From a virus: 22,130 nucleotides of DNA. Position 1 is the first letter of the stretch. Every line of letters begins with the position of its first letter. Below the pieces are notes generated by a model. That model did not search any database, was not told where the DNA came from, and saw only the letters and a program-made list of their open reading frames with translations. The translations under genes were made by a program, and so were the position numbers. The stretch lies in the IMG/VR virus record IMGVR_UViG_3300037264_008088; one strand, 5' to 3'. Below, piece after piece: positions 389 through 8,094 of this stretch.

Positions 389-2629
389 TTATGATTTGAG
401 GATGGAAAGTATCCTCTTGGAGTCCTCGGGGCTTGCCTGGACGTACGGCCCCTGCTTCAGCGCCGACCTGAATGATCCCTTGCCATGGATGATCGGCGGG
501 TTCCCGTCCTCCACAATGACGCCGATGTTCTGCTCCACGCATGCCAGGTATACCCCTGGGGCGTCGGCCCTCACCATCACGAACGGCGAGAACTTCCCTG
601 GCGCGGCGGCCACCTTGGTCGCCGCGCGGCTGGCGGCCGTCTTGGCCTTGGTTCGGGACGGTATCTTGGCGTCCATGAGGGCCTTCGCCGCCTCGGGTGT
701 ACTATTCTCCAGGAACACCATCTCGATGTCCCCAACGGCTATCCCGCCGTGTACCTGGGCCTCGACGTACTGCGTATCGCGCCCACCGCCTTTGTACAAG
801 TCCTCGATCCTAGTGGCCGAGTCAATGTTCTTGATTATCGTCCCCGTTCCGTCCCCAGACGCGCTGGAGTCGAACTGCGCCATTGGAACCGTCGCCCTGG
901 ATCCAGCGACGCGACTCCCTAGCAGCCCGTTAGCCTTGGCCTTGGCGACGTTCGCTGGGTCCTTGTCGTACGTGGTGTTCGTGTCAAGGGAGTCGCCGTA
1001 GGAGATCGTGCAGCGCGCTGCCGCCTCGGGCTTGAGCATGATGACGGCCCCGCCATACCTTGCGGCCTCGCCACCGTCCCCGTCCGGGAAAGACGACAGG
1101 AAGGCGTATACCGGCCTGCCGGAGTCGGCCATCTGCGTCCCGTAGCCCATCGCCTGCAACTCGATGCCCTTCCTCTCCTGGTAGGCGATGCCGCCGCCGG
1201 TAGTTCCGGTCTCGAACTGGGTCTTGAACCTGCCGCTCCCAATCATGCCAGGGAGAGCGTGCACGGGCATCCTGACGAAGACGCGTGCCGCCTGAACCAA
1301 CTGCTTGATCTTCTGGTCCAGCATGGCCTTGAGTTGCTGCGGTGGCAGCCCCTTCTGTTTTGCGCTATACTCGATATGGCTGGCCGATGCCTTGGCTGAC
1401 TGGCTCTTGAAGATGTCGTCCGAGTACATCGGGAGCGCCCTGGCGATCTCGGGGATGGACTTCCAAGCTTGGTCCCCGGACTGGCCTGCGGCGAGCAACT
1501 TGGCCAGCCATGCCGGAGGCTTGCCACCGAGCATGGCGGCCAGGATTTTGTTCCTGATGCCAGGGTTGGACAATAGCGCCGTCGCCGCGGCATGCCTCTC
1601 CACCGGGTTCGCGGACGCCGCCGCAGCCGCGATGTGCTTCTCGGTGGTGAGTGTCTTGGCGATGGCCTTCTCCTTGGATATCTCGCCGCGCACCCACTCC
1701 AGCTCGCTGGACGAGTCGCCCATGACCACGGCCTGGACCGGCTCAGACTCCTGCACGAACTGTAGCAGCGCCTCGTTCCTTGGCTGGGTGGGGACGGACG
1801 CGAAGACCTTCAGTGACTCCAACTTTTCTGGCATCGCCTTCGGCGACACGAGGAACTTTGATCGCAGGAACGACAGGTATATCCTCTTGGGGTCCTTGAT
1901 TGGTAGCCCCATCTTCTCCGGGGCGGCCTTCATGAATCCAACGGATCCCACGGAATCCACGTTCCAAAGGGCGGTCCACAAGGCCGTCTCGACGTTCTCT
2001 GGGTTTTGCAGGTAGGCCTTCAGTTGCTGTTGGACGTACGGCAGGGATGCCTCGTGGTATACCTCCTTGCTTATGCTGCTGGACCCCATCGGCTGGCCGC
2101 TGATGTAGTCCGCTGCCAGGAACCTCATCACGTCGTCCAGCCTTCCCTTTATATGCGGACCGACTTCAGGGTTCTGGATCATCCCCCTGGTGCCCTGCAA
2201 CAACTCGTTCAAGTGCTGCTTGTCATCCTTGAACATGTCCATCATCGCCTTGAGTTGCTGCTGGTTGAACCTCGCATAGTCTAGTTTGGCGAGGTTCTCC
2301 TTCACGAAGGCCTGCAAGTTATAATCCCGGCCGCTGAGGGCTTCCAGCACGCGCTGCGGGGAGGCCAGGTTGACTGCCGTGATGCCTTTGCCATTGAGCG
2401 CTTTGGCGAGGGCCTCGCCTGACTTGGCATCGAATATGTTCCAGTCAAGGCTGTCATTTCTTAACGCCCACCGCAACTCGTCAAATACCTCGTCAATGGG
2501 GCTTTGGGCGTAGTAGAGGACGGACTTAGGATTCCTCACGTCAAGCGGCGGCGGCGGCTTGGCCACCGGGGCCTGCCTGGCGAACTTGCAGTTGGCTCGC
2601 ATCCACGCTGACAGTCGGCTGATCCTCAT
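389..2629 (-). CDS. Large hypothetical protein (746 aa from the ATG at 2629; the ORF track extends to a TTG at 2683). N-terminus MRISRLSAWMRANCKFARQAP carries a motif shared with the next gene
   Basis: Long minus-strand ORF with protein-like composition. ATG at 2627..2629 lies 1 nt after the TGA of the upstream gene, which suggests translational coupling. Stop TAA at 389..391. No family recognised with confidence. Confidence 0.7.
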   Translation of the reverse strand: MRISRLSAWMRANCKFARQAPVAKPPPPLDVRNPKSVLYYAQSPIDEVFDELRWALRNDSLDWNIFDAKSGEALAKALNGKGITAVNLASPQRVLEALSGRDYNLQAFVKENLAKLDYARFNQQQLKAMMDMFKDDKQHLNELLQGTRGMIQNPEVGPHIKGRLDDVMRFLAADYISGQPMGSSSISKEVYHEASLPYVQQQLKAYLQNPENVETALWTALWNVDSVGSVGFMKAAPEKMGLPIKDPKRIYLSFLRSKFLVSPKAMPEKLESLKVFASVPTQPRNEALLQFVQESEPVQAVVMGDSSSELEWVRGEISKEKAIAKTLTTEKHIAAAAASANPVERHAAATALLSNPGIRNKILAAMLGGKPPAWLAKLLAAGQSGDQAWKSIPEIARALPMYSDDIFKSQSAKASASHIEYSAKQKGLPPQQLKAMLDQKIKQLVQAARVFVRMPVHALPGMIGSGRFKTQFETGTTGGGIAYQERKGIELQAMGYGTQMADSGRPVYAFLSSFPDGDGGEAARYGGAVIMLKPEAAARCTISYGDSLDTNTTYDKDPANVAKAKANGLLGSRVAGSRATVPMAQFDSSASGDGTGTIIKNIDSATRIEDLYKGGGRDTQYVEAQVHGGIAVGDIEMVFLENSTPEAAKALMDAKIPSRTKAKTAASRAATKVAAAPGKFSPFVMVRADAPGVYLACVEQNIGVIVEDGNPPIIHGKGSFRSALKQGPYVQASPEDSKRILSILKS

Positions 2630-2630
2630 A

Positions 2631-3662
2631 TCATAGAACTCCAAGCGAAACCATCTGCCTGTACAGGGGGTTGCTGTGGACAAGGAGCACCCCGTTCGCC
2701 TGCGTGACCACCTGGGACTTCGGGGCGATCATCGCCACCTCCCTGAGGACGTCGTCTGGCACCGGGGGCGAGATGTACACGTCGCCAGAGTACGGCCCCA
2801 TAGGGCTGATGCGGCTCCCGTTTGCGTCTAGTTTCAGCGGGGTGTTGTTCCTGCTCATGCCGGTGGCGCTCTCGACTTCCTCCGGGGCTATGCCCCTGTT
2901 GGACATGTGCCTCACGAAGACGTCCTCCCCGCTGTTGTCGCCCTTCGTGACGTAGTTCACGTAGACCTGGACCTTCAGGGACACCTGCCTGTTCGCCGCG
3001 AGCCTGTTCAGCCCCGGGGTCATGCTCATCAACTCCTCCGCGCTCACCCTCTCGCCAGATTGGAGCGAGACCTGCTCCCTGGCAGCCGCCGTGCTCAATG
3101 CCGGACTGGCGTGTGACACGACGTCCGCGGCCGGCGCCGTTATGGACAGGTCCCCGAGCCCGTCCCCGACCGGCTTGAGGACGACGGTCTCGGCCTTGTA
3201 GTCGATCCGCTCGACGTAGGCCTTCTCCCCGGCCAGAACCCCAAGGTCGCCCGGCGCGCCGTCGCCAACGGAGAGCAGCATCCTGCCAGTGCGCAACGGT
3301 TGCCCGTCAGGGAACCTGTGCTTGTCCTCGAAGCCGGATATGAGGGATTCTTGATCCTTCTTTTGGGTCGCCGCCTTGGCCTGGGACAACTCCTCGTCGT
3401 GCCACGGGTGATTGGGCCCGCTGAAATGCTTCCAGGACTTGGTCCTGTCGCTGCTCAGCATTTGCTCCCGCCCCTGCGGGTCCTTGACCCTTGCCTGCCA
3501 GAATGGCTGGCCCCTGGCGTCGCTCCCGGCCTGGGGCTTGTCCACCACGAGGAAGTACTCCCCCGGGCGGTCTGGCAACTCTATGCGGTCTCCCCTTTGC
3601 GGTGGCTGGAACGCGGCGAACCTGCAATTCTCCATGAGCCATGCTTGGGTTTGGCGCGGCAT
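2631..3662 (-). CDS. Hypothetical protein (343 aa from the ATG at 3662; track start 3716 is a TTG). N-terminus MPRQTQAWLMENCRFAAFQPP shares a motif with the downstream gene
   Basis: ATG at 3660..3662 preceded by GGAGGTG 4 nt upstream. Stop TGA at 2631..2633. Protein-like composition. Confidence 0.65.
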   Translation of the reverse strand: MPRQTQAWLMENCRFAAFQPPQRGDRIELPDRPGEYFLVVDKPQAGSDARGQPFWQARVKDPQGREQMLSSDRTKSWKHFSGPNHPWHDEELSQAKAATQKKDQESLISGFEDKHRFPDGQPLRTGRMLLSVGDGAPGDLGVLAGEKAYVERIDYKAETVVLKPVGDGLGDLSITAPAADVVSHASPALSTAAAREQVSLQSGERVSAEELMSMTPGLNRLAANRQVSLKVQVYVNYVTKGDNSGEDVFVRHMSNRGIAPEEVESATGMSRNNTPLKLDANGSRISPMGPYSGDVYISPPVPDDVLREVAMIAPKSQVVTQANGVLLVHSNPLYRQMVSLGVL

Positions 3663-8065: not shown

Positions 8066-8094
8066 GGGATTTCCGGCCGGAGGCCGGAAATCCC
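8066..8094. promoter_or_regulatory. Perfect 13-bp inverted repeat GGGATTTCCGGCC-gga-GGCCGGAAATCCC in the divergent intergenic region; candidate operator. A TATAAT hexamer (minus strand, 8053..8058) lies 7 nt upstream of the RmlD-like ATG
   Basis: Seen directly. Located between divergently transcribed genes (7128..8045 minus, 8114..8803 plus), overlapping where a -35 element would sit. Confidence 0.45.

Follow-up and report, generated by a model that had tools for sequence, protein, structure and literature searches.

A short conserved peptide at the boundaries of unrelated protein modules in genomes of probable huge phages

Three proteins encoded on a 22,130-nucleotide stretch of viral DNA (IMG/VR record IMGVR_UViG_3300037264_008088; the whole stretch is here called the window) carry the same short peptide, [AS]-W-[VIL]-x-x-N-C-[KR]-[FL]-A, each time in frame within a long open reading frame (ORF). 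Two of the copies stand near the N-termini of adjacent genes, here named A and B, and the third lies inside gene C. The question that this locus raises is whether such a repeat is kept as a peptide or as nucleic acid, and what it does in proteins whose other domains are mutually unrelated.

The three copies are listed in Table 1. They lie where the first-pass annotation had placed them, that of gene A eight residues past the start methionine, and a hidden Markov model (HMM) of the motif finds exactly three in the window. Over the ORFs of all fetched loci the scores of this HMM are bimodal, true copies reaching 15–29 bits and all else remaining below 7 bits. The 15-nt core, AAYTGCARGTTSGCC, is 13–14/15 identical among the copies, as had been claimed, and a search for it with at most one mismatch gave three matches in the window against 0.02 expected (100 shuffles, none of which reached three). 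The N-terminal peptide common to A and B had been put at roughly 20 amino acids (aa); it comprises about 11 residues, [AS]-W-phi-x-x-N-C-[KR]-F-A. In the source's gene calls, A (737 aa) and B (334 aa) begin at internal methionines (MRANCKFA and MENCRFA) and lose the motif tryptophan; the upstream ATGs at 2629 (A) and 3662 (B) are backed by orthologs and by good Shine-Dalgarno sequences, the start regions in question being 2602–2629 and 3635–3662 (minus strand). With the peptide cut by automatic calling in both genes, the motif is easily missed.

Selection acts on the motif peptide and not on its nucleotides, because orthologs keep the residues while the synonymous sites vary. Eight orthologs of gene B (about 46–58% identity, mostly on contigs of 45–142 kb) were aligned with the window gene and its shortened JGI gene call, and in these ten rows N12, C13, F15 and A16 are invariant and W8 nearly so; the retention of the motif among orthologs, on which its significance had been made to hinge, thus holds in 8/8 for Asn, Cys, Phe and Ala. 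In six of these orthologs the motif codons vary synonymously (AAT/AAC, TGC/TGT, AGG/AAG/AAA/CGC, TTC/TTT and GCC/GCG/GCA). Within a single protein, P0013 of genome piece L023, two copies of an identical 14-aa peptide, RKASSWVRSNCRFA, differ at six synonymous sites, and the C-terminal copy in P0020 has kept the peptide despite four synonymous changes. Rfam gave no match at the motif positions. The earlier proposal of nucleotide-level selection, for an RNA element or a recognition site, is contradicted by these results. It had been based in part on codons said to be rare in this background, which is true of AAT (16%; present in two of the three motif copies) and not of AGG, the commonest arginine codon of the window (39%). 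The nucleotide identity among the window copies follows largely from the shared peptide and codon bias.

Exchange at the level of DNA has left traces in some of the copies. The motif regions of genes B and C (3614–3648 versus 8590–8624) are inverted repeats of each other over 35 nt (80% identity), longer than any other in the window, and the codons at the variable positions of these two copies are each one base apart, a likeness not shared by the gene A copy; recent common DNA ancestry of the B and C copies is suggested. In L021 the gene for P0020 is flanked at both ends by SWVLRNCRFAG (10025–10051 and 11183–11209, plus strand). These flanking copies agree over their first 23 nt and then disagree at each of the four synonymous sites that follow, a pattern such as a crossover within the motif would leave. 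From the inverted repeat and the 23 identical bases it follows that copies are sometimes exchanged or duplicated as DNA.

The distribution of the motif was investigated with a 17-position profile, which was searched against 1.84 billion representative proteins with a cut-off of E<=1e-3. Eighteen proteins were recovered, of which about 15 are real, with 2–5 copies each; the three artefacts are an animal astacin with ShKT repeats and two junk repeats. The consensus, [AS]-W-V-[RL]-x-N-C-[KR]-F-A-[QAG], carries about 36 bits. Among 43 instances, 16 are N-terminal, lying 3–8 residues past the start methionine, 7 are C-terminal, lying 1–13 residues ahead of the stop (P0014, P0020, P0023, P0024, P0027 and P0029), and 20 are internal; copies between domains are found in P0013 (five copies in 804 aa), P0016 (three) and P0023 (three). 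The notion of a shared protein tag is therefore borne out, the peptide recurring on unrelated modules in other genomes, and it is not confined to N-termini, 27/43 instances being internal or C-terminal. More than one tagged gene is present in several genome pieces: three in the window and two each in L003, L021 (a 217-kb contig) and L108. The genomes with the motif range from 46% to 61% G+C, and the x positions are often alike within one protein and differ between genomes.

Other searches added little. Scans of IMG/VR with three back-translated versions of the motif returned only out-of-frame chance matches, and a scan of the GTDB representative genomes returned 75 stretches, essentially all of them chance matches in non-coding frames; the same scan also gave WIDWVE[ES]NCKFA in two Planctomycetia proteins, which were set aside as an unrelated family. 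A word-indexed search with the motif profile gave four small ORFs only. No Pfam, NCBIfam, PHROG or Rfam family covers the motif.

Several smaller observations belong beside these. P0031, P0032 and P0034 (L020, 10001–10168) are ORFs of 48–55 aa that contain little beyond one or two motif copies, and may have arisen by decay or frameshift, or may act as bivalent adaptors. A 136-aa protein in L001 (2742–3152, minus strand) ends in EEMEQWVQENC directly before the stop codon and so has the motif only as far as N-C, its first half; with 6.9 bits on the motif HMM it scores no better than the highest noise, and chance may account for it. The gene upstream of P0013 (L023, 602–2002, plus strand) ends in a Hint/intein-like segment (ILCHNS).

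The domains adjacent to the tag include a DUF3626/SopF-type ADP-ribosyltransferase (ART), ParB_N/DdrB-like, GNAT and transglutaminase-like domains, a Pol-beta nucleotidyltransferase and a zinc ribbon, together with weak PARP/Tpt1 matches and several unknown folds, that of gene B among them. Some of these modules recur in different arrangements. Residues 3–329 of an L003 gene match residues 182–508 of P0019, so that a tag plus domain X in the one is the second module of the other; residues 593–742 of P0013 (ParB module and trailing tag) match the N-terminus of P0016 (residues 11–153); and residues 103–223 of P0015 match residues 760–853 of P0016 (tag and C-terminal domain). These alignments show modules transferred from protein to protein, the breakpoints lying at the motif.

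Structural models suggest that the tag lies outside the fold of the adjacent domain. The AF2 model of gene B, made with ten sequences, is confident (pLDDT 85) and consists of small beta-barrels and alpha/beta units; residues 1–20, with a mean pLDDT of about 50, are modelled with the tag as a short helix detached from the fold. The single-sequence AF2 model of gene A is poor (pLDDT 41), and makes the tag helical and the PPPP stretch a coil. In the 25 residues past the tag proline makes up 10.2%, against a background of 6.4%.

In the window itself the N-terminus of gene A reads MRISRLS-AWMRANCKFA-RQAPVAKPPPP and that of gene B MPRQTQ-AWLMENCRFA-AFQPPQRG. No close homologs of gene A were found, and the PDB sequence searches gave for it just a marginal SopF-family match (7dn8). 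Proteins of other phages that bear the annotation "capsid maturation protease and ADP-ribosyltransferase" or "portal protein" contain DUF3626 as a fused domain. A search for loci related to that of gene B recovered none among viral contigs and only two in JGI metagenomes. The stop and start codons of genes B and A are one base apart, and the two look like tag-bearing modules kept as separate genes. Gene C, the ATG of which (8114) is preceded by GGAGGA 8 nt upstream, has the tag between an N-terminal domain and a C-terminal zinc ribbon (GFLL-AWVRRNCRLA-GSDDRPT-CFEPCG). The N-terminus of gene C (MPRRTASWVSEHGSDY, 8114–8161) also resembles that of gene B (MPRQTQAWLMENCRFA), though N-C-R-F-A is lacking; its motif-HMM score is 2.7 bits, and it may be a decayed copy or a chance likeness.

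The tag is thus real, conserved as a peptide, independent of position and present on unrelated domains, and modules are shuffled at it. As to its role, we tentatively favour, ahead of any other single explanation, a portable short linear recognition peptide that marks the boundaries of enzyme or effector modules and is read by one conserved partner for recruitment or docking; the docking role, the partner and the destination are what we infer. Such a motif would act wherever it is placed, near the start, near the stop or between two domains. One conserved partner would read it on many different modules and would recruit these to a common destination. A first guess at the destination would be the assembling virion, from which the enzymes would travel with the DNA, much as Alt and the internal proteins do in T4 and the Dar proteins in P1; the other candidate, a hub of the host that is itself conserved, would explain the invariance of the core across otherwise unrelated genomes. 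Genes B and A would then be two adjacent tagged modules of a kind that in other genomes is fused in one polypeptide, and gene C a two-module fusion that has retained the tag at its junction. The genomes that carry the tag are probably those of uncultivated, huge phages.

Docking is favoured because purifying selection maintains the terminal copies, where a cut would be of little consequence, because the tag is placed apart from the folded domain and a linker often comes after it, and because the x positions are alike within a protein and differ between genomes, as would be expected if they co-vary with a partner. By analogy, the type of cargo fits packaged and delivered proteins, given the fusions in which DUF3626 occurs and the ParB/ART/GNAT repertoire.

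Several points weigh against this reading. The association of the tag with virions is drawn by analogy only. Among the sampled pieces no gene family that could supply a partner candidate is common to the different tagged lineages, apart from the tagged ParB module. Conservation along the motif is only weakly helical (moment 0.23 at 100 degrees), because N-C-[KR]-F-A is a run of five consecutive conserved residues, and such a run would be as natural in the recognition site of an enzyme as in a docking helix. A multidomain protein should need one tag for its recruitment, yet up to five are present, and the ORFs of 48–55 aa that hold little besides the tag are not obviously cargo. The invariant Asn-Cys hints at chemistry beyond docking. 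Lastly, capsid, portal, terminase and prohead-protease genes were not recognised in the window or in the sampled flanks, and the label "phage" is therefore itself drawn from indirect evidence.

A processing site is a possible alternative, of lower probability than docking. Here a phage or host protease, or an Asn-dependent self-cleavage between Asn and Cys, would free the modules or trim a short leader or trailer. Copies stand exactly between domains, up to five per protein, as in viral polyproteins; the five consecutive invariant or near-invariant residues resemble an enzyme recognition site; and one of the tagged modules is transglutaminase-like, i.e. of a cysteine-protease fold. Asn-Cys chemistry operates at the C-termini of inteins and in the autocleavage of several viral capsids, and the invariant Asn-Cys of the motif would be suited to chemistry of this type. 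Processing has also been predicted for polyvalent phage proteins (PMC5512222). However, cuts at the conserved copies 3–8 residues from the N-terminus or 1–13 from the C-terminus would take off next to nothing, the window and most of the tagged proteins yielded no peptidase domain, and known phage prohead-protease sites are only about three residues long. Docking and processing could also be combined in one tag.

That the motif is primarily an in-frame recombination joint is unlikely. On this explanation the same peptide in the same frame at every boundary would allow modules to be swapped, deleted or fused without loss of frame, and it has in its favour the homologous modules of different proteins with their breakpoints at the motif, the crossover-like pattern of the copies flanking P0020, and the inverted repeat of genes B and C. 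Across genomes that differ this widely in G+C, however, the synonymous sites are free and the peptide is invariant, whereas with a function confined to DNA the expected conservation would be of nucleotides within a genome and not of amino acids between genomes; identical cores of 15–23 bp are, moreover, short for efficient homologous recombination. Recombination at the motif probably does take place, as a by-product and not as the function under selection.

A bolder proposal, which we consider more doubtful again, is that the invariant Asn-Cys is chemically active and makes the motif a minimal self-processing or ligation site, or else that the tag brings cargo into a compartment encoded by the phage, for instance a shell of the MVP/vault type. 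In the first case cleavage between Asn and Cys, exposing an N-terminal cysteine, or a transpeptidation catalysed by a partner, would cut, join or covalently anchor modules after translation.

Taken by itself, the idea of a cargo-loading peptide for a shell of the MVP (vault)-like protein encoded in the window is very improbable. The layout of tag, linker and varied cargo does resemble that of encapsulin cargo peptides, and a distance of 10 kb separates the MVP-like gene from genes A and B. In eukaryotes VPARP, an ADP-ribosyltransferase, is a component of vaults, and the ART-type domain of gene A may be compared with it. Proximity in this one window is the sole link between tag and MVP, however, and in about 170 kb sampled around tagged genes on ten other motif-bearing contigs, all of them partial genomes, no MVP-like ORF was present, so that the connection with the vault protein drawn in the first-pass annotation finds no support.

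Least credible of all, with almost no weight left to it, is a nucleotide-level element (RNA structure, protein-binding DNA site or chance repeat), for which the near-identical 15-nt cores and the rare AAT codons had spoken, the synonymous variation in orthologs and duplicated copies, the invariable in-frame position within long ORFs, the lack of an Rfam match, the preferred AGG codon and, for chance, the expectation of 0.02 all standing against it.

Four further candidates were rejected, the first three on reading the sequences. A lipoprotein lipobox lacks its hydrophobic h-region here, the motif is too invariant for a membrane-targeting amphipathic helix, and internal copies speak against a degron. 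An intein or Hint splice junction would call for a Hint fold of at least about 130 residues, with blocks A, B, F and G, ahead of the Asn-Cys junction; N-terminal copies are preceded by only 3–8 residues, and no Hint matches were found in tagged proteins.

The features of the window are collected in Table 1.

Table 1. Motif copies, genes and other features of the window
Feature	Position	Strand	Description
tRNA-Leu(GAG)	3-81	minus	
Gene A (SopF-like/DUF3626 protein)	389-2629	minus	746 aa; tag, Pro-rich linker (QAPVAKPPPP), helical region, DUF3626/SopF-like ADP-ribosyltransferase-type domain
DUF3626 domain of gene A	710-1249	minus	Residues 461-640; PF12294, E=8e-10
Motif copy 1	2579-2605	minus	Gene A; SAWMRANCKFA, residues 8-17 (W9...A17); HMM 25.4 bits
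Gene B	2631-3662	minus	343 aa; no known family
Motif copy 2	3615-3641	minus	Gene B; QAWLMENCRFA, residues 7-16 (W8...A16); HMM 26.5 bits
Gene C	8114-8803	plus	229 aa; N-terminal domain, tag, CxxC...CxxC zinc ribbon (8645-8749)
Motif copy 3	8597-8623	plus	Gene C, internal; LAWVRRNCRLA, residues 161-170 from ATG 8114; HMM 24.3 bits
RmlD-like epimerase			Window ORF; divergent from gene C
R2K ATP-grasp protein			Window ORF
DUF7873 protein			Window ORF
MVP-like protein	13482-16088	minus	868 aa; MVP shoulder domain (E=1.7e-24) and vault repeat
Two tandem HNH-endonuclease-like genes	16107-16781 and 16785-17456	minus	Directly downstream of MVP-like gene
Cysteinyl-tRNA synthetase	20132-21622	minus	Full-length

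The window has a G+C content of 61% and is read mostly on the minus strand. It looks like part of a large phage or similar element because several of its ORFs match PHROG families strongly (phrog_7313 at 8e-47, phrog_30090 at 2e-91); the majority of the remaining ORFs gave no match in the library scans. The MVP-like protein is without a PHROG match; viral MVPs have been reported from gut phages (2023 preprint, 10.1101/2023.11.10.566534). Genes for peptide deformylase, a ClpB-like ATPase, PTH2, a tRNA-binding domain and RNA ligase/Pnkp are present on related contigs, and the load of translation-related genes in the window and these contigs is typical of huge phages. A perfect 13-bp hairpin with a 3-nt loop (GGGATTTCCGGCC / GGCCGGAAATCCC) is present at 8066–8094, in the short spacer between gene C and the RmlD-like gene. 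About 680 nt between convergent genes (8804–9486) are without a convincing ORF and contain strong GC-rich hairpins at 9105–9146 and 9294–9335, which are probably terminators.

Were a single 10-residue peptide indeed to direct a variety of unrelated enzymes to one partner in large phages, it would provide a sequence handle by which the delivered or co-localised effectors of uncultivated phages could be listed, modules without an assigned function, such as gene B, included. It would also point to a conserved partner (a packaging receptor, a protease or a host hub) that could be fished with a synthetic peptide, and the tag could be used to load foreign proteins as a small portable label. Multidomain effectors of phages may, in addition, be built and rebuilt from modules that each bring the same in-frame joint.

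The concept of a short tag or boundary motif on varied cargo is already known; the motif itself, its independence of position and its multiplicity appear to be undescribed within the libraries and literature searched, in which no description of it was found. The T4 internal proteins and P1 DarB carry a short N-terminal capsid-targeting or packaging signal, which in T4 comprises about 10 residues and is removed by the prohead protease at L/I-x-E. Like the present tag these signals are short peptides found on unrelated proteins (in T4 the ADP-ribosyltransferase Alt among them) a few residues from the N-terminus, and they direct enzymes that act in the newly infected cell; the packaging of P1 Dar/DdrB is discussed in PMC5512222. 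Their sequences are unrelated to the motif and they are N-terminal only, whereas the tag here is also C-terminal and between domains, with up to five copies per protein; no L/I-x-E follows the motif, and no prohead protease was found in the window.

Encapsulin cargo peptides share with the tag a conserved short terminal peptide that is joined by a flexible linker to varied cargo, and the presence of several tagged genes per genome. They have a different consensus, and internal and multiple copies are atypical there; among the 20 window ORFs no Pfam or PHROG match indicated an encapsulin or HK97-fold shell gene. A W-x3-N-C-x-F/L-like stretch also occurs in ShKT and in the aECM cysteine-cradle domains (PF23626), which gave sub-threshold profile matches. 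These are disulfide-rich extracellular animal domains with several more cysteines, and the resemblance is put down to chance because only a 10-residue stretch matches.

In polymorphic toxins (VENN in CdiA, DPxGL in Rhs) a short invariant peptide likewise stands where variable enzymatic modules are exchanged, and that boundary motif may serve both processing and recombination. It occurs there once per protein, in secreted bacterial proteins, ahead of a C-terminal toxin with an immunity gene downstream; the present motif flanks every module, with multiple copies at both ends and between modules, in phage-like genomes, and neither an immunity gene nor secretion domains were found with it.

The last comparison is with the polyvalent proteins of phages, of which DdrB-like ParB, ART and GNAT domains are hallmarks and which have been argued to be injected with the DNA (PMC5512222, PMC7824862); an inter-domain motif of this kind is mentioned in neither paper. 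Unlike these, A and B of the window are separate single-module genes and gene C has two small modules. Polyvalent-type MuF or metallopeptidase domains were not found in the tagged proteins, and the ART-like evidence consists of DUF3626 and the weak PARP/Tpt1 matches. P0013, P0016 and P0023, on the other hand, each combine at least two unrelated effector or enzymatic domains in one polypeptide and, like the polyvalent proteins, are multidomain mosaics with DdrB/ParB-like, ART-like and GNAT domains.

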